Origin: Acidobacteriota bacterium
Lineage (GTDB): Bacteria; Acidobacteriota; Polarisedimenticolia; Gp22-AA2
DNA: 64,000 bases
Assembly: GCA_046758905.1 (NCBI GenBank)
Contig: JBHIBC010000007.1
Span: 2,290 to 66,289 of the forward strand
Reading direction: 5' to 3'
Below are positions 38,043 to 57,272 of this stretch, piece by piece. Below the pieces are notes generated by a model. That model saw nothing but the letters and a program-made list of their open reading frames with translations, was not told where the DNA came from and did no database searches. The position numbers and the translations under genes are program-made. Each line of letters starts with the position of its first letter. Position 1 is the first letter of the stretch.

Positions 38043-40127
38043 ATGAGTTTCAGGACCCCGATCGTCGCGGCGGCGCTGGCGGCGCTGATGGGGTCGGGCG
38101 CCGCGTCGGGGACCGCCCTCGCACGGACCTACCGGACTCTCACCGGCCGCGTCGTGGACGGCGAGGGAGAGGGCATCGGGGGCGCGAATGTCATCGTCAC
38201 GCCGATCGCGCCCCGCCACCCCAACCTGCTCCTGCTGTTTACGGCCGGCTCGCCGGCCTCCGGCCGCTTCAGCGCGGTGCGCAGCCGGCCGGACGGAGGC
38301 TTCTCGGCCCTCCTTCCCGAAGGTCGATACAGCGTGGCGGCCTATAAGAACGGGTACGACGTCGCCCTGAGCGCGGTGAACACCCGGGCCCGGGCCTTCC
38401 TGGAGCTCGAGCTGCAGCGGGCGGCGAGGATCGTCCTGGGGGATCTCCCCGTCGGATCTGCGGGGCAGGAGCTCGGCCTCAGCTGGATCCTCAGGCGTTC
38501 GACGGGGGGCGTGCTGCACGAGCGGGAGGAGTCTGTCGCCGGGCCGCCGGTGGCGTCGCGGGCAGCGCACTCCGGATGGCTGGGCGAGGTCCTCGGCCCC
38601 GTGGACGGAGAGTTTCGGCAGCGGTTCAGCGGTGCGGCCCGGCCGGGAGGGGAAGATGCGGCGATCGGCGACACGGCGGGCCGCACGACGGCGCTGGCCC
38701 TAAGCGGCGCCATCGAGGGGCTCGGCACCTGGCGCTTCCTGGGCCGCTCCGGGAAGGCGGTCGCCACGCTGCGCGGCGGTGCCGTGCGCCGGGATCGCAG
38801 CTCCGATCTCATGCGGGCGGGCGTCGACCTCGATCTCGGCGCGGCGGACGCGCTGACGGCGGAGATCGAGTACGGCACGCATCGTTTCGTGGTCGATTCC
38901 CGGGAGGAGGCGGTGGGGTCGACCGACCAGGAGCAGCGGACGATCGGCTTGCGCTCGCGCTGGGACCGGCGTCTGGGAGGGGTCACGCGCCTGTTCGTGG
39001 ACGCGGCCTATTTCGAGACCGGGGTGCGGGTGCCGCAGGCAGGGGCTCCGCTGGCGCCCGCGGACGGCACCGAGATCGGTCGGCTCACCGACCGCTCCTG
39101 GCTGGCCACCGCCGGCATGGCCATCGATTCCGGCGACCATCGGCTCGACTTCGCTCTGCGCACCTCGAGCTATCGCTACGACCTTCGGGATCTCGGGGTG
39201 ATGCTCAATCGGCCCGGTCCCGGACCGACGCTCGCGGAGCCCGGCACGCGGGGAAACGCACTGAGCCTGTTCGCGGGGGACGACTGGCGGGTGGCGGACG
39301 GATACGTGGTCAACTACGGTTTCGGCTACCACGCCAACCTGTCCGCCGGGGGCACCTACATCGTGCCCCGGATCGGGCTGACCCGGAGGCTGTCGGAGGA
39401 CGGCGCGACACTGCTGCGCTCGATGGTGATGTTCCGCCTGAACGATGCGGGACGGGCCGCGGGAGAGCTCCGCGCGGGCGCGGGCGGCTCCGTCGACCGG
39501 GATCGGGCCGGCCGGGTGGGATACCTGATCGCGCTCGAGCGCCGGAGCGGGGACCGGCTGCGGCTGTCCGCGACGTTTCGCTACCAGCCGTTCGAGGAGG
39601 GGCTGGAGTCGGGCGGGCCGCACGGAGCGGCGGGCGAGTGGGGCGACGCCCTGCCGTTGCTGACCGACGGCGCAGCCGGCCGGCGGGAGTTCGACCTCGA
39701 GCTGGCCCACGCGATCGGGGATTTCCGCGGCAGCATCTCGGGCAGCGTCGGGAGAGTGAGGGGCCGGCTGACCCCGGCCGTGGAGGAGGCGCCGGTCCAG
39801 ATCCTGATGCCCGCGGAGCTGCGCTACTACGCCACCCGCCTGCGCGCGGTCTACGCCCCCACGGAGACGGAGCTGCAGGTCGGATACCAGTGGATGATGG
39901 CCGAGGACCGCGGTGATCCACTGACCGGGTCCGGCGAGATCGACTTCAGGCGTCTCGATCTGGTGATCTACCAGGACCTGCCGTGGCTCCAGGACACCTG
40001 GAATGCCGACTGGAAGGTCCTGATGGCCTACCAGGACCTCGCCTACGGCACGCTCTTCGACGGGTCGGGCCGCGCCGTCCCCGTATCGGCGTCCCGCCTG
40101 ACCGGCGGCGTCGACATCCGCTTCTGA
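38043..40127 (+). CDS. Outer-membrane beta-barrel protein with N-terminal carboxypeptidase-regulatory-like domain
   Basis: Signal peptide, LTGRVVDGEGEGIGGANV...GRYSVAAYKNGY, alternating beta-strands, terminal GGVDIRF. Confidence 0.75.
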   Translation: MSFRTPIVAAALAALMGSGAASGTALARTYRTLTGRVVDGEGEGIGGANVIVTPIAPRHPNLLLLFTAGSPASGRFSAVRSRPDGGFSALLPEGRYSVAAYKNGYDVALSAVNTRARAFLELELQRAARIVLGDLPVGSAGQELGLSWILRRSTGGVLHEREESVAGPPVASRAAHSGWLGEVLGPVDGEFRQRFSGAARPGGEDAAIGDTAGRTTALALSGAIEGLGTWRFLGRSGKAVATLRGGAVRRDRSSDLMRAGVDLDLGAADALTAEIEYGTHRFVVDSREEAVGSTDQEQRTIGLRSRWDRRLGGVTRLFVDAAYFETGVRVPQAGAPLAPADGTEIGRLTDRSWLATAGMAIDSGDHRLDFALRTSSYRYDLRDLGVMLNRPGPGPTLAEPGTRGNALSLFAGDDWRVADGYVVNYGFGYHANLSAGGTYIVPRIGLTRRLSEDGATLLRSMVMFRLNDAGRAAGELRAGAGGSVDRDRAGRVGYLIALERRSGDRLRLSATFRYQPFEEGLESGGPHGAAGEWGDALPLLTDGAAGRREFDLELAHAIGDFRGSISGSVGRVRGRLTPAVEEAPVQILMPAELRYYATRLRAVYAPTETELQVGYQWMMAEDRGDPLTGSGEIDFRRLDLVIYQDLPWLQDTWNADWKVLMAYQDLAYGTLFDGSGRAVPVSASRLTGGVDIRF

Positions 40128-40143
40128 GGGGAACGAGGGCGAC

Positions 40144-42957
40144 GTGAGACGGACGCTGGCGGTGACGTTCACGGCCCTGCTGCTCGCCTGGGGCGCCCTT
40201 TCGTTTCACTCGCAGGTCAACAAGGTCGCGCCCGAGACCGGCGTCGAGTGGGTCGATACTCCGCGCGGGCCGCTCGCCGGCTGGGTGATCCCCGGAGCGC
40301 CGGCATGGAAGGCGGGACTCAGGCCGGACGACCGCCTCCGGGCAGTCGAGGGCAGGCCGGTCGACTCGGCGGTGGCGGCCGAGGACGCGCCGTGGCGGGT
40401 CCCGAGGGGGCAGACGATCGCCTACCTGGTCGAGCGGCACGGCGAGCAGCTCGAGTTCCGCGTCCGGCCCGCCTGGGTCGGCGGCGGCGCCCCGGTCTAC
40501 TACTACTTGTCGATCGTCGGCCTGACCTTCCTGGGCGTGGGGCTCGTCGTCTGGCTGCGGGCCACGCGCGCGCGGGCGGCCGTGCCGTTCGCCCTCCTCT
40601 GCCAGGCGATGTTCCTCCTCTTGGTCATGGACCCGACCGGGGAGGCCACCGTGCTCGACTGGTCCGCCTACTGGGGAGACCTGGCGGGCTGTCTGCTGGC
40701 GCCGGCCCTGTTCCTGCACATCAATTTCGCCCTGGAGGAGGAGAATCGCGGCAGCGCACGGAAGCGGCTCCGCAGGAGCCTGGCGATCTATCTACCGCCA
40801 TTCCTGCTGCTGCTCTACAACCTTTACCTGATTCCGTTCAAGGGGGTGTATCGCTTCTCGGACCCTCTGACGGCGATCCGTTTCAAGAACCGACTGGAGG
40901 AGCTGTACATCGCCGTCTACCTCATCTACGGGATCGTCAAGGCGGTGCGCGCCTACCTGTCGGCCGAGCGGCTGCCGACGCGCTGGCAGATGAAGTGGAT
41001 GGCCTGGGGCAGCCTGGTCGGTTTCCTGCCGGCGGCCCTCTTCTACCTGGCGCCGCGGGCCCTCAACATCCGCATCGGCGGGTGGAGCGAGCTGGCCGTC
41101 CTGTCGATCTCGGTGGTGCCGCTCGCCTTCGCGGCGGCGATCGTCCGATACCGTCTGCTCGATCTCGACATCTTCCTCAAGCGCGGCATCGTCGCGACCG
41201 GTCTGGTCCTGACCGCGGCCGCGACCTACGCGGCCTGCTACGTGATCATGGAGAGGGCGGCCGGCGGCATCAACCCGGCCGGCCTCAACCTCGCCCTGAT
41301 CCTGGCGACATTCCTCATGGCGATCTTCTACCCGCGGCTTCACCGGCGCCTGAAGGCCTCCGTGGATCAGTTCTTCTACCGCGAGCGCTACGACTACCGC
41401 CGGACCCTGACGGAGTTCGGGGAGGCGCTCAACAGGGAGCTGAGCCTTCCGGTCCTGCGGCGCAAGTTCACGGCCCGGGTCGAGAGGACCTTCGGCCTGG
41501 AGAGGGCGCTGGTCTTCGTCCGCCACGGCGAGCGGGGCGAGTTCGCGGCCGATCCCCCCGGCCACGGGATTCGCCCGGACGACCCGGTCGTCGGCCTGCT
41601 GCAGCGGGTCGACTACCTGCCCCTCCGGGACCATCCGGGGGTGCATCAGATGGAGACCGGCGCCTACCTGATCGAGGGCCTAGGGCTCGAGTACCTGCTG
41701 CCGATGACCGTCGAGGGGGAGATCGTGGCGATCCTCGGCGTCGGGACCTCGCACCGAGGCGAGCCCCTGACCAGCGAGGACCTTCAGCTTTTGGTCTCCT
41801 TCTGCCGGCACGCCGCGGTGGCGTTCGAGGGGGCGCGCCTGTACAGCGCCGTCGCGGAGAAGGTGCGCGAGGTGGAGGCCCTGAAGGAGTTCAACGAGAG
41901 CATCCTGGAGAGCAGCCGGGTCGGCATCCTGGTGGCCGACCTGCGGGGGCGGGTGGTCGGTGTCAACGGCGCGTTCGAGACCCTGTTCGCCGCGCCGCGC
42001 GCCGAGATCCTGGGGCGGCCGCTGTCGGACATCCTGCCTGCCGGCTGCTTCACGGCGGGTGACGGGGCGGATGGGTCCCGGCGCGGCGCCGCCCTCCCTG
42101 AGGAAGGGATCAGGATGTACCGATCGACTCTGGTCACGCGCGATGCCCGCCGGCTGCTGGTCAATCTGTCGCAATCGGCTCTCCGTGGGCCGGACGGCCA
42201 GCCGTGCGGCCGGGTCATCGTGGTGGACGACGTCACCGACGAGGTGAAACGGGAGGAGGAGCTGAGACGGCGCGAGCACCTAGCGTCGATCGGGTTGTTG
42301 GCCTCGGGGATCGCGCACGAGGTGAACACGCCCCTCACGGGAATCGCCTCCTACGCGCAGCTCCTCCTCGAGGGCAGGCGCCAGGGCGATCCGGAATACC
42401 CCCTTCTCAAGAAGATCGAGCAGCAGGCGTTTCGAGCGGCCGGGATCGCCTCCAGCCTCCTCAATTTCTCCCGCCAGCGGGACGGTGATTACCAGCGTCT
42501 CGACGTCCGGGACATGGTCCGGGAGACGCTTGACCTGTTCGAGCCGCACCTGCGGGGGAAGCGCGTCCGGATCGAGCGCCGCATCGATGAGCGGCTGCCT
42601 CCCGTCGTCGGGAACCGCGGCAGGCTGCAGCAGGTATTGATGAACCTGCTGCTGAACGCCGTCGACGCCATGCCGCGGGGAGGCTCCCTGAGGGTGGAGG
42701 CCCTGTCGGTCGCCGACCGCGTGCGCATCGAGGTGTCGGACACGGGCGTCGGAATCCCGCAGGACCAGATCGACAGGATCTACGACCCGTTCTTCACCAC
42801 CAAGCCGCGCGGCCGGGGGACCGGTCTGGGGCTCTCGGTCTCCTACGGGATCGTGAAGGAGCATGCCGGCACGCTGGTGGCCGAGAGCATCCCCGGGGAG
42901 GGGACCCGCTTCCGGGTCAGCCTGCCGGTCGCCGACCGGAGGCGCGCCTCGGCATGA
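40144..42957 (+). CDS. Membrane sensor histidine kinase (PDZ, multi-TM, GAF, PAS, HisKA, HATPase)
   Basis: PAWKAGLRPDD (PDZ), about 8 TMs, IAHEVNTPL (H-box), NLLLNAVDA, DTGVGI, PFFTTK, GTGLGL. Confidence 0.93.
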   Translation: MRRTLAVTFTALLLAWGALSFHSQVNKVAPETGVEWVDTPRGPLAGWVIPGAPAWKAGLRPDDRLRAVEGRPVDSAVAAEDAPWRVPRGQTIAYLVERHGEQLEFRVRPAWVGGGAPVYYYLSIVGLTFLGVGLVVWLRATRARAAVPFALLCQAMFLLLVMDPTGEATVLDWSAYWGDLAGCLLAPALFLHINFALEEENRGSARKRLRRSLAIYLPPFLLLLYNLYLIPFKGVYRFSDPLTAIRFKNRLEELYIAVYLIYGIVKAVRAYLSAERLPTRWQMKWMAWGSLVGFLPAALFYLAPRALNIRIGGWSELAVLSISVVPLAFAAAIVRYRLLDLDIFLKRGIVATGLVLTAAATYAACYVIMERAAGGINPAGLNLALILATFLMAIFYPRLHRRLKASVDQFFYRERYDYRRTLTEFGEALNRELSLPVLRRKFTARVERTFGLERALVFVRHGERGEFAADPPGHGIRPDDPVVGLLQRVDYLPLRDHPGVHQMETGAYLIEGLGLEYLLPMTVEGEIVAILGVGTSHRGEPLTSEDLQLLVSFCRHAAVAFEGARLYSAVAEKVREVEALKEFNESILESSRVGILVADLRGRVVGVNGAFETLFAAPRAEILGRPLSDILPAGCFTAGDGADGSRRGAALPEEGIRMYRSTLVTRDARRLLVNLSQSALRGPDGQPCGRVIVVDDVTDEVKREEELRRREHLASIGLLASGIAHEVNTPLTGIASYAQLLLEGRRQGDPEYPLLKKIEQQAFRAAGIASSLLNFSRQRDGDYQRLDVRDMVRETLDLFEPHLRGKRVRIERRIDERLPPVVGNRGRLQQVLMNLLLNAVDAMPRGGSLRVEALSVADRVRIEVSDTGVGIPQDQIDRIYDPFFTTKPRGRGTGLGLSVSYGIVKEHAGTLVAESIPGEGTRFRVSLPVADRRRASA

Positions 42958-44384
42958 ACCCACCGCGCGTGGCGGCGTTCGAGAGTGAGGACTCGCGCGA
43001 GCGCGCGGTGGGGAGCGGCCGGATCCTGGTGATCGACGACGAGCCCATCGTCCGGGAGGTGCTGGGGGACGTCCTCTCCCGGTCGGGGCATTCCATCTCG
43101 GGCTGCGGGGACGCCGAGGAGGGCCTCGAGGCCCTGGGCTCCGGGGGCTTCGACCTCGTGATCCTCGACCTGATGCTGCCGGGCATGGGGGGTCTGGAGG
43201 CTCTCAGGGAGATCAAGAAGCGGGACCCCGACCAGCTGGTGGTGATGATCACCGCCTACGGCTCGGTGGAGACGGCGGTGCAGGCGATGCGGATGGGGGC
43301 GCACGACTACCTCACGAAGCCGTTCAAGAACGAGGACGTCCTGCGCACCCTCGGGAACGCGCTCCGACACCGACGCCTCCTCCGCGAGAACCGCAGTCTC
43401 CGGCGGGCCCTGCAGGGCCGGAGCCGGCTCGGGGGGCTGGTGGGGAAGAGCCGGGAGATGCGGGAGCTGTATCGGCTGATCGAGCAGGTCGCCCCTAGCC
43501 GCTCCACCGTGCTGATCCAGGGCGAGAGCGGCACCGGGAAGGAGCTGGTCGCCCAGGCGGTGCACCGTCACTCCGGACGTCCCGCGGAAGCCTTCGTGGT
43601 GGTCAATTCGGGGAGCATGCCGGCCGATCTGCTTGAGAGCAACCTGTTCGGGCACATCCGTGGAGCGTTCACGGGGGCGGTGCACACCAAGAAGGGGCTC
43701 TTCGAGGTGGCCAGCGGAGGCTCGATCTTCTTCGACGAGATCAGCACGATCAAGCCCGAGGTGCAGGCCAAGCTGCTCCGGGTGATCCAGGAGAAGGAGT
43801 TCCTGCCGTTAGGCGCGATCCAGAGCGTCCAGGTGGACGTGCGGATCATCGCGGCCACGAACATCGACCTGCAGGAGCTGGTCCGGCGGGGCGAATTCCG
43901 GGAGGACCTGTACTACCGGCTGAACGTCATCACCCTCAACCTGCCCCCGCTGCGCGACCGGCGGGAGGATATCCCGCTGCTGGTGGAACACTTCGTGGCC
44001 CTTTACGCGGCCGAGAACGGCAAGGAGATCCGCGGCCCGACCTCGGAGGCGATGGCGCTGATGCTCGACTACCACTGGCCGGGCAACGTCCGGGAGCTCG
44101 AGAACGTCATCGAGCGGGCCGTCGTGCTGGCGTCGACGCCCGATCTGGACGTCGAGCTGCTGCCCGAAGCGCTGCGCCGCCAGGGGATCCGCCTGCCGAC
44201 CCCCGCCGCCCTGATGGAGGGACGCTTCTCCTTCTACGAGACGATGGAGCGGTTCGAGAGGGAGATCATCCTGGAGAGCCTCAAGAGGGTGAACGGGGTG
44301 CAGCGTCGGGCCGCCGAGCTGCTGGGGCTCAAGGCGACGACGCTGAACGAGAAGATCAAACGGCTCAGGATCGACCTCCCTTAA
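42954..44384 (+). CDS. Sigma-54-dependent Fis-family response regulator (NtrC/AtoC type)
   Basis: Receiver LDLMLP, GESGTGKE, GAFTGA, EDLYYRLNV, WPGNVRELEN, C-terminal HTH. ATGA overlap with the kinase. Confidence 0.95.
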   Translation: MNPPRVAAFESEDSRERAVGSGRILVIDDEPIVREVLGDVLSRSGHSISGCGDAEEGLEALGSGGFDLVILDLMLPGMGGLEALREIKKRDPDQLVVMITAYGSVETAVQAMRMGAHDYLTKPFKNEDVLRTLGNALRHRRLLRENRSLRRALQGRSRLGGLVGKSREMRELYRLIEQVAPSRSTVLIQGESGTGKELVAQAVHRHSGRPAEAFVVVNSGSMPADLLESNLFGHIRGAFTGAVHTKKGLFEVASGGSIFFDEISTIKPEVQAKLLRVIQEKEFLPLGAIQSVQVDVRIIAATNIDLQELVRRGEFREDLYYRLNVITLNLPPLRDRREDIPLLVEHFVALYAAENGKEIRGPTSEAMALMLDYHWPGNVRELENVIERAVVLASTPDLDVELLPEALRRQGIRLPTPAALMEGRFSFYETMERFEREIILESLKRVNGVQRRAAELLGLKATTLNEKIKRLRIDLP

Positions 44385-44443
44385 GCACGGGAGCCCCCGC
44401 CCGCCCGCTGCATAGACTCCGCACGGCCCGCCTCAGGATCCGG

Positions 44444-44471
44444 TTGACAGGCCAGCACTTGGCGGTAGAAT
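44444..44471 (+). promoter_or_regulatory. Sigma70 promoter P1 upstream of the TonB-dependent receptor
   Basis: TTGACA-16 nt-TAGAAT. Confidence 0.7.
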
Positions 44472-44588
44472 TACGACCGCAGGTGTCGCCGCCGAATACC
44501 GCTGAGGTCCCGTACGCCCGGCACCGGACGGTCCGGGGGAGCGGAGGAGGGATGGGGGCAGAGTCACGAGGGGGCCGACGGGCCATCC

Positions 44589-44618
44589 TTGACAGGCTCG
44601 ACGCCGTTCCCCTACACT
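44589..44618 (+). promoter_or_regulatory. Sigma70 promoter P2 upstream of the TonB-dependent receptor
   Basis: TTGACA-18 nt-TACACT. Confidence 0.6.
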
Positions 44619-44712
44619 CCGGGCGACCCGCGCACAGCTGCGACTCCGACGGAAGGCCGGTGCCTTGACAGGGGCTGCGCACCACCCGAGCCGAGCCCGG
44701 AGGTTCGAACCG

Positions 44713-47700
44713 ATGGTCGTGAAGAGAGCCCTGCCCATCCTGTTGAGCGGTGTTCTGGCCCTCGCCCTGTCCCTCCCCGGGGCAGCGCTCGCCCAGACGG
44801 CCTCGGGCATCCGCGGGCTGGTCGTGGACAAGGACGGCGAGCCGATCGTCGCAGCCACGGTTCTGGTGGAGAACCGCGACCTGGGCATCTCCCAGCAGGG
44901 CACGGTCACCGACGCCCGGGGGCAGTTCCGCGTCGCGCCCCTGCCTCCCGGGCGCGGCTACACCGTGACGGTCTCCTTCCCCGGCATGGCCACGGTGATC
45001 CTGTCCGACATCGAGGTGCGCGGCAGCGGGTTCACCAGCGTTCCGGTGACGCTGCGCCCCGACAAGGAGATGCGGGAGAGGGTGAGGGTCACGGCGGTGA
45101 CGGACGTGGTGGACACCGCCTCGACGACGACGCAGACGAGCTTCTCCGACGAGTTCATCGACGCCCTGCCGATCCTGGGGCGGAACTACCAGGACGTGTT
45201 GTCCCTGGCGCCCGGGGTGACGGATGTCGACGGGGACGGCAACCCGAACATCCTCGGCGCCCGCGACACCGACACCATCACCCTGGTGGACGGGGTGTCG
45301 ACGGTCGACCCGCTCACGGGGCAGCGGGGTCAGGAGCTGAACATCGAGTCGATCGCCGAGATCGAGGTGAAGACGTCGGGCGCCTCGGCCGAGTTCAGCC
45401 GCGGCCAGGGCGGCTTCGTCAACATCATCACCAAGTCGGGCGGCAACGACTTCCAGGGCCGGTTCTCGTTCTTCTGGAGGAGCAACATATTCGACGGCGA
45501 CGGCGCCGGCCTGGACGACCCGAAGCTGCACGGCGGGCTGGGGGAGCTGGGGCTGCGCGACCTGGACTTCAATGACTTCAGGCCGTTCCTGTCCCTGAGC
45601 GGGCCGATCAGGAAGGACAAGGCCTGGTACTTCTTCAGCGCGCAGTACATCCAGGAGGAGGTTCCCGTCAACGCGCTGACGCAGGCGTTCGTGCGCGGCC
45701 ACGAGGAGTTCCGGGTCTTCGGGAAGCTCAGCTGGGACATCAACCCGAACAATAAGCTCAGCTTCACGGTCAACATCGATCCGCAGCAGTTCAACAACCT
45801 CGGCCTCAACTCGTTCACGCAGCTCGAGAGCGGCTACACGGTGGACGCGGGCGCCACCAACCTGGTCCTCACCGAGACCTCGGTGTTCAACCCGAACGTC
45901 TTCCTCGAGACCAGGCTCCAGTACTGGACCTCCACCCCGGAGCTGTTCCCCACCCTCGATCCCGACACCAACGGCAACGGCGTCCTGTTCATCGACCGGA
46001 ACGGGGACGGCTTCATCGACGGGACCGAGCGCGACCCGGGGGAGGACTTCGACCGGGACGGGCGCTTCGACGTCTTCGAGGACCGCAACGGCAACAAGGT
46101 GCTGGACGAGGGCGAGGACCTGGACGGGGACGGGAGGCTCACGGCGCCGGGCGCGTGCGAGGGCGCCAACCGCGAGGACATCGACTGCGACGGACATCTC
46201 GACTTCATCAACGAGGATCAGGACGGCGACGGCAAGCTGGACCCCGGCGAGGACCTGGACGGGGACGGTCGTCTCGACGACGGGACCGAGGACCGCAACG
46301 GCAACCAGCTGCTCGACGACCGTCCGTTCGTCGCCCCCGACGATTTCTTCGTGGACGAGAAGGGCAACGTGAACCCGACCTACCCCTACGGGTCGCTCAA
46401 CCCGCTCCCGAACGACCTGGACTACTCGCAGGACCAGCGCACCCTCCGGATCAGCGGCCCCTACTACTTCACCATCAACCAGGACGAGAGCCGCGTCACC
46501 CTGCGGGAGGACCTGACGGTCTTCGTCCCGGACTGGTTCGGCCAGCACGACCTGAGACTGGGCGCCGTCATCGAGAAGGAGGACTACAAGCAGGCGACGG
46601 ACGCGCGCAACTTCCTGTTCCCGAACGCGTCGCCCCCGACCTCCAGCACCATCCTGCCCACCACCGCGGTGCGGCTTCCTTCGGAGAACCGCATCTTCAA
46701 CGAGGCGAACAACACGACCTTCGGGGCTTACTTCAACGACGTCTACAAGCCCCTGCCCAACCTGACCCTGGGCATCGGCCTCCGGTTCGATCGGGAGGCG
46801 ACCGACTCGTTCGGCTTCACGCAGTTCGACCCCGCGGAGCAGCGGCGGCAGTTCGACACCATCTTCAACCTGGGGGGCGGAGAGCAGAACGTCACCGACG
46901 AGAGCCAGATCGGCAACAACGACGGGATCATCAGCCAGGGCTTCTGCGGGGATCCGATCTTCAGCCAGAACACCGGCGTGGGCGGCAACGTCTGCACCAA
47001 CTTCACGATCAAGGATGAGGAGGGTGCGCCCCACGGCGAGGCGGTGGTCCGGGACCACAACAGCCTCAGGCTCCTGGCGGCCTCCCGGCTCACCCAGCAC
47101 CACATCTCCACCACGCTCGTCGCCGAGACTCTGGCGCAGCTCTTCCCCGAGGCCGTGGACCCGAACACCGGCGAGATCAACCGCGATATCCTGCGGGAGA
47201 AGGGGAACGCCACCTTCCAGGAGCGGGAGTCCTTCCGCCTGACCAACAACAACCTGGCGCCGCGGCTGTCGATCTCGTGGGACCCCTGGGCGGACGGCAA
47301 GACCAAGCTGTTCGCCAACTGGAGCCGTTTCTACGACAAGCTGTTCCTCGCGACGGTGATCCCGGAGGAGGGGCCGGACTTCATCTACCGCTATTATCGG
47401 AAGGACCAGGACGGCGTGACGGGGGCGGGCGTCCCGAACAACCAGCTCGGCGCCGCCCTCTCCAAGGCCCCGCCGGACGCCAGCCAGGTGGACCGGGGCC
47501 TGGAGACCCCATTCACGGATGAGCTGTCGATCGGGTTCGAGCGCGAGCTGGCGCCGGAGCTCTCCCTCAGGGTCACCTTCATCGACAGGAAGGGTCGCAA
47601 CGGGCTCCAGGACCTGGACATCAACCACGAGATCCGCTGCTGCGAGCCGAACGCCAACAGACCGGGCGAGGAGCGCCCGATCGACGTCCTGGGGAGGCTC

Positions 47701-48435
47701 GTCCAGGGCAGCGGGGCCGCCACCGGCGGCGGGGCGAGCGTCCGTCAGCAGGACTTCCGTCCCGACCTTTACAACCGCAACTTCTTCTTCAACCGGATCT
47801 TCCGGATCGGGAACTTCAACACGTCCCGCTACAAGTCGATCCAGCTGCAGGTGACCAAGAGGCTGAGCCGCAAGTGGCAGATGGATGCCTCGTACACCTA
47901 CTCGCGGGCTCGCGGAGACGCGGAGAACTTCGCGTCGCTGCTCGGGGACGATCCCGCGACCACCGCCCTCGAGTTCGGATACCTGGACTTCGACCAGCGA
48001 CACGTCGTGAAGTTCAACGCGGTCACCTTCCTGCCGGGCGACTGGGAGCTGGGCGGCACGCTGCAGTGGAGCTCGGGCCTCCCGTTCTCGGAGGTCGATT
48101 TCTTCACGTCGGCCGACAACTTCGACTACTTCTCTTTCCGGAGGCTCCTCGGGCGCGTGGTCAGGGGCGACAAGGAGCCGGAGTTCATCCCCATCCGGCG
48201 CAACTCGCTGCGCAACGACGCGGTCTACAACATCGACGTCCGGGCCTCGAAGGCGTTCGTCCTCGGACGCTTCAACGCAAAGGCGTTCGTGACGGTGCAG
48301 GACCTGCTCAACACGGACGACCTGCGGATCTCGTTCTTCCTGCCTGACAACCCGAACCGCGGCGGCGCGTTACAGCTCATCTCGGAGCGTCAGTTCGGCC
48401 GGCGCTTCGAGGTCGGGTTCCAGTTCGACTTCTAG
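44713..48435 (+). CDS. Oar-like TonB-dependent receptor (1240 aa) with Asp-rich Ca-binding repeat insert
   Basis: GGAGG RBS, signal peptide, carboxypeptidase-regulatory-like domain, plug (LPILGRNYQDVLSLAPGV, GGFVNIITKSG), barrel ending FEVGFQFDF, nine Dx[DN]xDG-like motifs at about 45958-46340. Confidence 0.93.
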   Translation: MVVKRALPILLSGVLALALSLPGAALAQTASGIRGLVVDKDGEPIVAATVLVENRDLGISQQGTVTDARGQFRVAPLPPGRGYTVTVSFPGMATVILSDIEVRGSGFTSVPVTLRPDKEMRERVRVTAVTDVVDTASTTTQTSFSDEFIDALPILGRNYQDVLSLAPGVTDVDGDGNPNILGARDTDTITLVDGVSTVDPLTGQRGQELNIESIAEIEVKTSGASAEFSRGQGGFVNIITKSGGNDFQGRFSFFWRSNIFDGDGAGLDDPKLHGGLGELGLRDLDFNDFRPFLSLSGPIRKDKAWYFFSAQYIQEEVPVNALTQAFVRGHEEFRVFGKLSWDINPNNKLSFTVNIDPQQFNNLGLNSFTQLESGYTVDAGATNLVLTETSVFNPNVFLETRLQYWTSTPELFPTLDPDTNGNGVLFIDRNGDGFIDGTERDPGEDFDRDGRFDVFEDRNGNKVLDEGEDLDGDGRLTAPGACEGANREDIDCDGHLDFINEDQDGDGKLDPGEDLDGDGRLDDGTEDRNGNQLLDDRPFVAPDDFFVDEKGNVNPTYPYGSLNPLPNDLDYSQDQRTLRISGPYYFTINQDESRVTLREDLTVFVPDWFGQHDLRLGAVIEKEDYKQATDARNFLFPNASPPTSSTILPTTAVRLPSENRIFNEANNTTFGAYFNDVYKPLPNLTLGIGLRFDREATDSFGFTQFDPAEQRRQFDTIFNLGGGEQNVTDESQIGNNDGIISQGFCGDPIFSQNTGVGGNVCTNFTIKDEEGAPHGEAVVRDHNSLRLLAASRLTQHHISTTLVAETLAQLFPEAVDPNTGEINRDILREKGNATFQERESFRLTNNNLAPRLSISWDPWADGKTKLFANWSRFYDKLFLATVIPEEGPDFIYRYYRKDQDGVTGAGVPNNQLGAALSKAPPDASQVDRGLETPFTDELSIGFERELAPELSLRVTFIDRKGRNGLQDLDINHEIRCCEPNANRPGEERPIDVLGRLVQGSGAATGGGASVRQQDFRPDLYNRNFFFNRIFRIGNFNTSRYKSIQLQVTKRLSRKWQMDASYTYSRARGDAENFASLLGDDPATTALEFGYLDFDQRHVVKFNAVTFLPGDWELGGTLQWSSGLPFSEVDFFTSADNFDYFSFRRLLGRVVRGDKEPEFIPIRRNSLRNDAVYNIDVRASKAFVLGRFNAKAFVTVQDLLNTDDLRISFFLPDNPNRGGALQLISERQFGRRFEVGFQFDF

Positions 48436-48498
48436 ACGGATCGGCTTGGATGGCCGAGGGCCCGTACCCCGTTCGCGGGCGTGGTCTTCGCAGCCTCG

Positions 48499-48527
48499 TT
48501 GACAGCGCGGGGATCGGACGCTAGACT
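48499..48527 (+). promoter_or_regulatory. Sigma70 promoter of cysS
   Basis: TTGACA-17 nt-TAGACT. Confidence 0.7.
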
Positions 48528-48549
48528 CGCCCCCTGCCGCACGAGGCTC

Positions 48550-49947
48550 ATGGGACTGCGCGTCTACAACACGCTGACCAGGAGAGTCGAGGATTTCGTC
48601 CCGTTGACGCCGGGAGAGGCGCGCCTGTACACCTGCGGGCCGACGGTGTACGACTACGCGCATATCGGGAACTTCCGGACCTACGTCTGGGAGGACCTGC
48701 TCCGCCGGTATCTCAGGTTCCGGGGCTTCCGCGTCGTCCAGGTGATGAACCTCACCGACGTGGACGATAAGACGATCGCCAACTCCTTGAAGGCGGGCCT
48801 CAACCTGGACGATTACACGCGACGCTACGTCGACGCCTTCTTCGAGGACATCGACGCGCTGGGGATAGAGCGGGCGGAGCACTATCCCCGCGCCACCCGG
48901 CACATCGACGAGATGGTGGCTCTCGTCCGCCGCCTCCGGGACAACGGTCACCTCTATGAAAGCCGCGGATCGCTGTATTTCCGCATCACCACCTTCCCCC
49001 GTTACGGCCGTCTGGCCCGCATCGACCCCGGGGCCGCATCGGGCCACGCGCGGATCGATTCGGATGAGTACGAGAAGGACGACCCGCGTGACTTCGCGGT
49101 CTGGAAGGCGCGCCGGGACGACGAGCCCTACTGGACGACGGAGATCGGTGAGGGACGCCCGGGATGGCACCTGGAGTGCTCGGCCATGTCGATGAAGTAC
49201 CTCGGCGAATCGTTCGACATCCACACCGGCGGCGTGGACAACATCTTCCCCCACCACGAGAACGAGATCGCCCAGAGCGAGGGAGCGACCGGCAGGCCGT
49301 TCGTGCGCTACTGGATGCATGCGGCCCACCTGATCGTCGACGGTCAGAAGATGTCGAAGTCGCTGGGGAACTACTACACCCTGCGCGACCTGCTGGGGCG
49401 GGGGTTCGATCCGCGCTCCATCCGCTACCTGCTGCTGTCGGCGCACTACCGCAGCCCCCTGAATTTCACCTTCGAGGCTCTCTCTCGGAGCGGGGCCTCG
49501 CTCGAGCGACTGGACGACCTGGCCCGTCGGCTCCGCGAGGCGTCGCTTCCGCCCGGCAGCGACCGGTCCCTCCGTAAGAGGATCGCCGCCGCGCGGGCCG
49601 GCTTCGTGGAGGCGCTGGACTCCGATCTCAACACGGCCGGGGCCCTCGGCCATCTCTTCGTCCTGGTGCGGGAGGCCCATACGGCCCTCGACGAGGGCAG
49701 GGCCGGCTCGGACGACGCGCGGGAGGTGCTCGACCTCCTGCGGACCTTCGAGTCGGTTTTCGGGGTCCGGGTCGGGCGGGTGGAGGCGCTCGACCGGGAG
49801 GTCGAGGAGATGATCCGCCGCAGGTCCGAGGCCCGAGCCCGCAAGGACTACGCGGAGGCCGACCGGATCCGGGACGCGCTCTCGACTCAGGGGATCGTTC
49901 TGGAGGACACCCCCCGGGGTGTGAGGTGGAAACGCCGGGGAGCCTGA
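48550..49947 (+). CDS. cysS: Cysteine--tRNA ligase
   Basis: YTCGPTVYDYAHIGN, GRPGWHLECSAM, FPHHENE, KMSKSLGN. Confidence 0.97.
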   Translation: MGLRVYNTLTRRVEDFVPLTPGEARLYTCGPTVYDYAHIGNFRTYVWEDLLRRYLRFRGFRVVQVMNLTDVDDKTIANSLKAGLNLDDYTRRYVDAFFEDIDALGIERAEHYPRATRHIDEMVALVRRLRDNGHLYESRGSLYFRITTFPRYGRLARIDPGAASGHARIDSDEYEKDDPRDFAVWKARRDDEPYWTTEIGEGRPGWHLECSAMSMKYLGESFDIHTGGVDNIFPHHENEIAQSEGATGRPFVRYWMHAAHLIVDGQKMSKSLGNYYTLRDLLGRGFDPRSIRYLLLSAHYRSPLNFTFEALSRSGASLERLDDLARRLREASLPPGSDRSLRKRIAAARAGFVEALDSDLNTAGALGHLFVLVREAHTALDEGRAGSDDAREVLDLLRTFESVFGVRVGRVEALDREVEEMIRRRSEARARKDYAEADRIRDALSTQGIVLEDTPRGVRWKRRGA

Positions 49948-57243: not shown

Positions 57244-57272
57244 TTGACAGGAGAGCGGTTTCACCGTACATG
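57244..57272 (+). promoter_or_regulatory. Sigma70-type promoter of the giant subtilase
   Basis: TTGACA-17 nt-TACATG. Confidence 0.55.

Follow-up and report, generated by a model that had tools for sequence, protein, structure and literature searches.

What is a string of EF-hand-like loops doing within the β-barrel of an outer-membrane receptor? The question is raised by a gene in a 64,000-nucleotide stretch of DNA from an Acidobacteriota bacterium (assembly GCA_046758905.1, contig JBHIBC010000007.1, positions 2,290 to 66,289 of the forward strand; hereafter the window), which encodes a TonB-dependent transporter (TBDT) of the Oar subclass. In Gram-negative bacteria, nutrients that are scarce or bulky enter mainly through TBDTs, whose extracellular loops determine what is captured. 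A preliminary description, made from the letters of the window, had noted an array of calcium-binding-type motifs between strands of the barrel and had proposed a calcium-stiffened domain for docking or adhesion at the cell surface. The analysis reported here indicates that a discrete, strongly acidic domain very probably occupies the fourth extracellular loop (L4) of the receptor, that this domain probably binds several calcium ions, and, more tentatively and by analogy, that it may serve in docking.

Nine EF-type loops within an Oar-type receptor

The array region is spanned by only one coherent open reading frame (ORF), which is preceded by a GGAGG sequence 9 nt 5′ of its ATG. The G+C content of the window is about 70%. 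The product, named P0002, combines an N-terminal CarboxypepD_reg extension, a plug and a large barrel (coordinates of all features are collected in Table 1). The plug scores 27.8 bits against PF07715 (cut-off 23.9) over residues 138-234 and its end aligns with residues 117-153 of FepA; the barrel is matched by the Pfam family PF25183 (OMP_b-brl_4; E 1.2e-41), and the C-terminal residue is Phe. At the boundary between the extension and the plug stands a TonB-box-like sequence that the family consensus retains as ExVxVxA, its resemblance to TonB boxes having been judged by eye. TBDT models of NCBIfam match the receptor below threshold only. Because the three Pfam families, an AlphaFold2 (AF2) model and the Foldseek matches of that model all point the same way, and genes for TonB_C-domain proteins are present in the same genome, the protein is, just as the preliminary description had it, a TonB-dependent receptor of the Oar type; it has a plug, a barrel and a CarboxypepD_reg extension. 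An identical 1240-residue product is also called on an independent public (Logan) contig, which rules out an assembly artefact as the origin of the array.

A regular-expression scan retrieved all nine motifs listed in the preliminary description (DTNGNG, DRNGDG, DFDRDG, DRNGNK, DLDGDG, DIDCDG, DQDGDG, DLDGDG and DRNGNQ), which start at residues 418, 428, 445, 457, 469, 489, 502, 514 and 527; the interval 45958-46340 assigned there to the array is correct. Motif starts are spaced by 10-20 residues, mostly 12-13. The unit, D-x-[DN]-x-[DN]-G-x-[LIF]-D-x-x-E, is the pattern of an EF-hand loop, and successive units are contiguous, Glu12 of one loop abutting Asp1 of the next in near-invariant E-D junctions. 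The LDxGED linkers noted earlier are found as LDEGED, LDPGED and LDDGTED. The full pattern (D1, [DN]3, [DN]5, G6, a hydrophobic residue at position 8, D9 and E12) occurs in the loops at 428, 445, 457 and 502; those at 489 and 514 are near-complete, with Glu at position 13. Loop 5 continues into a CEG...RED-x-DCDG element that bears Cys482 and Cys492. As a whole, residues 416-543 consist of 25% Asp, against 7.7% in the rest of the protein, and 16% Gly, and carry a net charge of -30 over 128 residues.

Predicted placement of the domain in extracellular loop L4

The AF2 model, covering residues 120-1240 and based on an alignment of 83 homologous receptors (A1, see below), has a mean predicted local distance difference test score (pLDDT) of 84.3 and a predicted template modelling score (pTM) of 0.80. 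Foldseek gave a probability of 1.00 for its matches with more than 40 TBDT structures, the best being the ferredoxin importer FusA (4zgv, E 2e-35) with YddB next, and returned TM-scores on the target of 0.61-0.78 for siderophore and vitamin receptors. Profile comparisons agree (family profile against 1fep, E 1e-7; against PirA, 5fr8, E 7e-13). Alignment of GGFVNIITKSGGNDFQGRFSFFWR to GGVVNIITKKGSGEWHGSWDAYF of FepA, whose barrel starts at residue 154, fixes strand 1 of the receptor at residues 248-257.

Starting from this anchor, the strand list places seven strands ahead of the insert, on the side of all the long loops, and the loops alternate with turns of 2-3 residues (lengths of the connections in Table 1). 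Such alternation of tight turns and long loops is the pattern of every solved TBDT. Taken together, the seven strands and the alternation identify the insert, with high confidence within the model, as extracellular loop L4. The same strand list, and a gap in the Pfam barrel profile, which skips from position 246 to 281 across the insert, set the array between two barrel strands as first described, and the structure prediction bears out the surface location that had been proposed for it: strand parity, the FepA anchor and the long-loop side all speak for the outside and not for the periplasm.

Within L4 the model remains confident (pLDDT 83-90), and DSSP assigns no regular secondary structure to it. 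A model of the isolated domain (pLDDT 78.6, pTM 0.66) is likewise all coil. A confident prediction made of coil only is what would be expected of a chain organised around bound ions, and, being free of secondary structure, it makes the "calcium wire" of thrombospondins the nearest analogue.

Conservation and boundaries of the insertion

A word-seeded HMMER search with residues 380-600 as query returned 468 proteins. The best 120 of these are mostly receptors of 1200-1300 residues with an identical Pfam set, which cover the whole region at 46-67% identity; alignment A1 was drawn from these matches. Throughout A1, conservation is complete or at least 90% at the chelating Asp/Asn residues, the E-D junctions, T477, C482, C492 and the closing YPY, both cysteines being present in 83 of 83 homologues and retained also in the non-receptor proteins described below. 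Conservation of this order, at the chelating Asp, Asn and Glu positions and at both Cys, rules out chance or low-complexity drift as the source of the motifs. In the closest relatives, identity over the domain is close to that over the entire protein (69% versus 70% and 60% versus 61%). As judged from these alignments, the domain is under strong purifying selection. At the DNA level, Tandem Repeats Finder found no 36-39-nt period in the array, which rules out a recent origin by slippage; the array is therefore an old one, kept by selection. The number of loops does vary: paralogues of 1285-1300 residues carry 3-4 extra loops after loop 8, and one homologue, P0113, has three fewer.

When 1.84 billion cluster representatives were searched exhaustively with phmmer, 14,317 relatives were found. 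Of the 50%-identity clusters, only a handful align across the region without a break, and the alignments of many relatives of 1050-1100 residues fall into pieces that end at the insert. The length of the segment between strands 7 and 8 was compared in a second alignment (A2), made of the query, the insert-bearing clusters and relatives without the insert. This segment, corresponding to L4, measures about 172-174 residues in the query and 125-215 in four insert-bearing clusters, versus 33-71 in 25 relatives at 31-39% identity. The array is thus an insertion into a barrel loop, as the preliminary description had implied.

One protein recovered from public data, P0085 (1333 residues), covers the insert region in full at 48% identity and has N-terminal VIT and von Willebrand A domains where the receptor has CarboxypepD_reg, an architecture unusual for a TBDT.

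Recurrence of the module in exported non-receptor proteins

About a quarter of the best HMMER matches are not receptors. They are exported proteins of 1280-1370 residues with Kelch and canonical thrombospondin type 3 (TSP3) repeats, or proteins of approximately 700 residues without any Pfam match. Each of these non-receptor carriers contains two colinear copies of the module (FDVFED, GDGRLT, the CEG..RED.DCDG pair, three further loops, LDDRP and the YPYG tail). In three public exported proteins, P0004, P0025 and P0018, a small β domain separates the two copies, and the long forms continue beyond the modules with a Kelch propeller and canonical TSP3 repeats. BLASTP with composition-based statistics aligned the insert to P0018 with 60% identity over 141 residues (E 1e-40) and to the second copy with 57% over 135 residues. 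Because a colinear module recurs in this way in exported proteins that are not receptors, the insert is, on this comparison, a discrete module and not a mere repeat tract. The preliminary description was right about the EF-hand-like loop pattern; its picture of a loose repeat array gives way to that of a discrete domain of about 130-170 residues, found outside receptors as well.

Database comparisons suggest that the module is a candidate new domain family, as it matches no catalogued one. A Pfam search with the insert alone, at E ≤ 10, listed EF-hand_5 only (E 0.004; 17 bits, below the cut-off of 25.9) and no thrombospondin, dockerin, RTX, cadherin or FG-GAP model of weight. P0018 gave no Pfam match. 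A profile of the domain found no match among PDB sequences (best E 1.3, unrelated), and Foldseek with the model of the isolated domain found none below E 6; the only row with notable identity (42% over 26 columns) was the lanthanide-binding tag 3vdz, at a non-significant E of 9.1. The NCBIfam model NF033765, for the calcium-repeat region of the gliding adhesin CglD, matched the receptor with E 0.014 and 13 bits, the cut-off being 400.

Confinement to one acidobacterial order

Nearly all public species genomes that encode the receptor bear the label Candidatus Polarisedimenticolia, Acidobacteriota or "Acidobacteria gp22"; at least four paralogues are present in several of them. When the domain profile was run on 401 genomes across the phylum, the nine positives all belonged to the window's own order; when it was run on 34 genomes of that order, all 34 were positive, representing 20 of 20 genera, with 1-15 matches each. 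Match counts approximate copy number, some proteins giving more than one match. Within the genomes sampled, the domain is confined to one acidobacterial order.

The genome from which the window derives (2.9 Mb, 98.5% complete) encodes three Oar-type barrels, two of which have the domain, namely the receptor described here and, on contig 24, a paralogue 57% identical to it. The third barrel (contig 10; L082, 1465-3897, a frame of about 1288 residues) lacks the domain in L4, and its single DDDGDG motif lies in another region. The domain profile found no non-receptor carrier of the module in this genome.

A number of metagenome-assembled genomes (MAGs) of the SMAG series bear labels from outside the phylum. 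Four paralogues of this Polarisedimenticolia-type receptor were found under the label Patescibacteria group (L002, L009, L027 and L059) and four under Verrucomicrobiia (L019, L031, L042 and L053), and at least one under each of the labels Binatia (L006, L025), Dongiaceae (L029) and Cryosericum (L021). The NCBI taxon labels of these MAGs are probably wrong.

Comparison with known systems

The receptor shares with the Oar subclass, typified by Oar of Myxococcus xanthus (PF13620, PF07715 and PF25183), the order of signal peptide, CarboxypepD_reg, TonB-box-like motif, plug, large barrel and C-terminal Phe (PMC6434023). It differs from the Pfam barrel profile and from the receptors at 31-39% identity in having the L4 domain. 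The paper on Oar makes no mention of calcium or of an extracellular-loop feature (PMC6434023), and searches of the literature turned up no relevant account of a TBDT whose loops carry thrombospondin-type, EF-hand or DxDxDG inserts; the possibility, raised at the outset, that the insert might be a common and already described feature of Oar receptors finds no support in the profile, in these relatives or in the literature searched. Oar helps export; the present receptor may act in import or, in the manner of Oar, in export. Among solved TBDTs, the protein importers FusA and YddB (4zgv, 6ofr) are the best matches (Foldseek E 2e-35 and 1e-31; profile E 1e-14), at only 10-11% sequence identity or thereabouts and with loops that are without a calcium-loop domain. 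The ranking of these matches is weak evidence for the class of substrate.

The likeness to TSP3 repeats (PF02412), as in COMP, lies in DxDxDGxxDxx[DE] loops that follow one another in tandem and are nearly devoid of secondary structure. In thrombospondin structures, the loops are held by Ca2+ and by disulfides. TSP3 has Cys in every repeat, whereas the array has one Cys pair for nine loops. Homology of the insert to TSP3 was rejected: hhalign against the canonical TSP3 repeats of P0004 gave a probability of 9.4%, and PF02412 was unlisted at E ≤ 10. In P0004 itself, the best PF02412 stretch is at residues 948-977, outside its modules at about 130-400. With the canonical EF-hand, the domain shares the 12-residue loop with ligands at positions 1, 3, 5, 9 and 12 (loops at 428, 445, 457 and 502). 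However, in the EF-hand the E and F helices flank the loop, while residues 414-585 are helix-free in both AF2 models and their loops abut; the missing helices and the EF-hand_5 score below cut-off exclude membership in that family.

A functional precedent is BtuB, whose loops are ordered by two Ca2+ held in an Asp cage, with a rise of about 1000-fold in the affinity for cobalamin (PMC7360065). Both receptors have acidic extracellular loops, which in BtuB are ordered by Ca2+ and set the affinity for the substrate (PMC7360065). BtuB, however, holds its two Ca2+ in a five-Asp cage of ordinary loops, as opposed to an autonomous nine-loop domain of about 170 residues, predicted to bind calcium. Calcium-dependent TBDT loops and calcium-wire repeats were thus known separately; what is new is an autonomous domain with nine calcium-loop sites in L4, specific to one order and common to receptors and exported proteins.

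A proposed calcium-ordered lid or dock, and its alternatives

By analogy with these systems, the reading that we favour, with moderate confidence, is that of an Oar-type TBDT whose L4 has been replaced by a calcium-ordered acidic domain acting as a lid or dock at the surface. Binding of several calcium ions is predicted and is the more probable part of this reading; the docking role is a tentative part, an analogy only, since no conserved neighbouring gene encodes a ligand, a partner or a substrate-processing protein. About 170 residues long, strongly acidic and self-contained, the domain would string its nine EF-type loops of 12-13 residues head to tail, stapled by a Cys482-Cys492 disulfide and closed by a YPYG tail that returns into strand 8. 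Outside the cell, in calcium-rich marine vent water, each loop would chelate one Ca2+, and the otherwise unstructured polyanionic chain would condense with these ions into a rigid "calcium wire", free of helix and sheet, on top of the barrel. The wire might then form the lid at which ligands or partners dock on the transporter, in the manner of BtuB but far larger in scale. If the chain remains unfolded as long as Ca2+ is absent, the outward passage of a 170-residue loop could also be easier for the Bam machinery. In a bolder form, which we regard as distinctly improbable, the L4 insert would be the founding member of an order-specific "EF-loop wire" domain, a helix-free fold of abutting calcium sites serving as a portable, Ca2+-dependent unit of surface interaction; on TBDTs, ligand capture or partner docking would depend on external Ca2+, possibly through homotypic, calcium-bridged contacts between the module of the receptor and its counterparts in the exported Kelch/TSP3 proteins.

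Several points weigh against this calcium-ordered lid or dock. The canonical ligand set is complete in only four of the nine loops, and the AF2 models contain no ions. Strand parity, the lengths of the loops and the FepA anchor, rather than measured geometry, are the grounds for calling the loop "extracellular", and the strand count from the C-terminal side is ambiguous. As for expression, the receptor sequence was found only in DNA runs of a hydrothermal vent metagenome. Finally, no conserved peptidase, glycosidase or surface lipoprotein that would point to a substrate is found among the neighbours of orthologues and paralogues.

Other roles can be envisaged for an acidic domain on a receptor. 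Loaded with calcium, it could act not as a substrate site but as an adhesin or tether, in line with the adhesion proposed in the preliminary description, bridging through shared Ca2+ to lipopolysaccharide, capsule, S-layer or minerals. The exported Kelch/TSP3-type carriers of the module, which resemble surface or adhesive proteins, would fit such anchoring in the envelope or matrix, as would the vent or sediment habitat of the source and the weak resemblance to the CglD calcium repeats. That resemblance, however, is far under cut-off, the transporter that carries the domain in its L4 has an intact plug and a TonB-box-like motif, and only two receptors have the domain in this genome, which encodes no matching partner protein; anchoring seems unlikely for these reasons. 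Nor does it seem at all likely that the loop is merely tolerated, as a calcium-folding or disordered acidic expansion of the lineage that shields the barrel, for instance, from phages or bacteriocins. TBDT loops often vary by lineage, and the loop number of the array differs among paralogues as detailed above; yet the chelating residues, the E-D junctions and the Cys pair are maintained over 83 sequences and two protein architectures, the domain keeps pace with the whole protein in conservation among the closest relatives, and AF2 assigns high confidence to the coil region.

Two further explanations fare less well. Chains of EF loops bind lanthanides tightly, as in lanmodulin and lanthanide-binding tags, and a net charge of -30 at the barrel mouth could gather Ca2+, lanthanides or other hard cations for import; the short, non-significant match to 3vdz goes in the same direction. 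On the other hand, calcium is abundant in seawater and would not need energised uptake, the module also occurs in proteins that are not transporters, and no PQQ (pyrroloquinoline quinone) alcohol dehydrogenase of the XoxF/MxaF type scores over its family cut-off in this genome, which leaves no known lanthanide enzyme to supply. On the latter account, the lanthanide idea was demoted, and cation capture appears very unlikely. More improbable still is a periplasmic insert, lodged in a turn and playing a role on the inner side, such as signalling to the adjacent PDZ kinase. The kinase and its sigma-54 regulator are indeed syntenic with the receptor in orthologous loci; but the FepA alignment that fixes strand 1, the seven strands counted from there and the alternation of the insert with short turns, as in known TBDT extracellular loops, all argue for the opposite face.

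Should the calcium-ordered lid or dock prove true, a compact, calcium-only fold would be added to the known repertoire, the order would gain a sequence marker, and a soluble domain of 170 residues would offer a tractable system for calcium control of ligand capture at the outer membrane. In this little-known acidobacterial order, which is uncultured, a transporter loop has been replaced by an autonomous domain predicted to bind multiple calcium ions. Were the domain not to bind calcium, what would remain is a loop elaborated in one lineage.

Other features of the receptor and its locus

Table 1. Features of the receptor, its predicted barrel connections and its locus. Positions are those of the window.
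Feature	Residues or length	Window position	Strand	Basis
Receptor gene, Oar-type TonB-dependent transporter	1240 residues	44713..48435, stop codon included	+	ORF and translation
Sec signal peptide (MVVKRALPILLSGVLALALSLPGAALA followed by Q)	1-27	44713..44793	+	direct sequence reading
CarboxypepD_reg N-terminal extension	33-114	44809..45054	+	Pfam PF13620, E 7.5e-17
TonB-box-like ERVRVTAV, boundary of N-terminal extension and plug	122-129	45076..45099	+	recognised by eye
Plug domain, C-terminal end GGFVNIITK	138-240	45124..45432	+	Pfam PF07715, alignment to FepA 117-171
Extracellular loop L4 (predicted), inserted calcium-loop domain, between strand 7 (396-413) and strand 8 (586-607)	414-585	45952..46467	+	AF2 DSSP, Pfam profile gap, L4 lengths of relatives
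Nine tandem EF-loop-type motifs	418-538	45964..46326	+	regular-expression table, family conservation
Core module (loops 3-9 and YPYG tail) common to exported non-receptor proteins	443-575	46039..46437	+	BLASTP against P0018
Cys482/Cys492 (CEG...REDxDCDG), presumed disulfide across loops 5 and 6	482, 492	46156..46188	+	invariance in homologues
Extracellular loop L6 (predicted), partly helical, with Cys745 and Cys761	703-837	46819..47223	+	AF2 helices, pLDDT 55-80
Connection L1	29 residues			
Connection T1	3 residues			
Connection L2	4 residues			
Connection T2	2 residues			
Connection L3	11 residues			
Connection T3	2 residues			
Connection L4 (insert)	172 residues			
Connection T4	2 residues			
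Connection L5	12 residues			
Connection T5	2 residues			
Connection L6	135 residues			
Sigma-54-dependent response regulator, upstream of receptor		42954..44384	+	ORF; syntenic in orthologous loci
Three TTGACAGG copies in the 330-bp receptor leader		44444-44451, 44589-44596, 44665-44672	+	pattern search

The preliminary description had also pointed to a second large, Cys-paired insert at about 46860-47200. A long loop with a Cys pair is present there (L6), Cys745 and Cys761 being conserved in 74 of the 83 sequences of A1. Its status as a specific insertion did not hold up: because the loop is long in all relatives (66-160 residues), L6 is, as judged from these lengths, a general long loop of the clade. 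A vicinal Cys-Cys pair (RCCEPN) is found in a later loop (residues 976-977, window 47638-47643). It occurs in 15 of the 83 family members; the usual residues at these positions are Tyr/Phe and Asp.

The receptor gene is the fourth in a series consisting of a CarboxypepD_reg outer-membrane protein, a PDZ/PAS histidine kinase, the sigma-54 response regulator, the receptor and cysS (window 38043-49947). The same gene order is found on two other metagenome contigs (in one of them at L085 378-12391), where the receptors are about 57-64% identical to the one described here. The conserved order suggests that receptor and two-component system belong together as a unit. One receptor paralogue sits in an unrelated gene context.

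In the interval between the response regulator and the receptor (44385-44712), no sigma-54 element of the GG-N10-GC type was seen by eye; sigma-70-like hexamers are present instead. The leader contains three of the four matches to TTGACAGG in the 64-kb window (0.57 expected). The first copy lies 16 nt upstream of TAGAAT, in a sigma-70-like promoter arrangement. The fourth copy (57244-57251) is upstream of a giant subtilase gene at about 57474, and 13 nt (TCCGGTTGACAGG) are identical between it and the first. The repeated element may be a shared promoter or operator.

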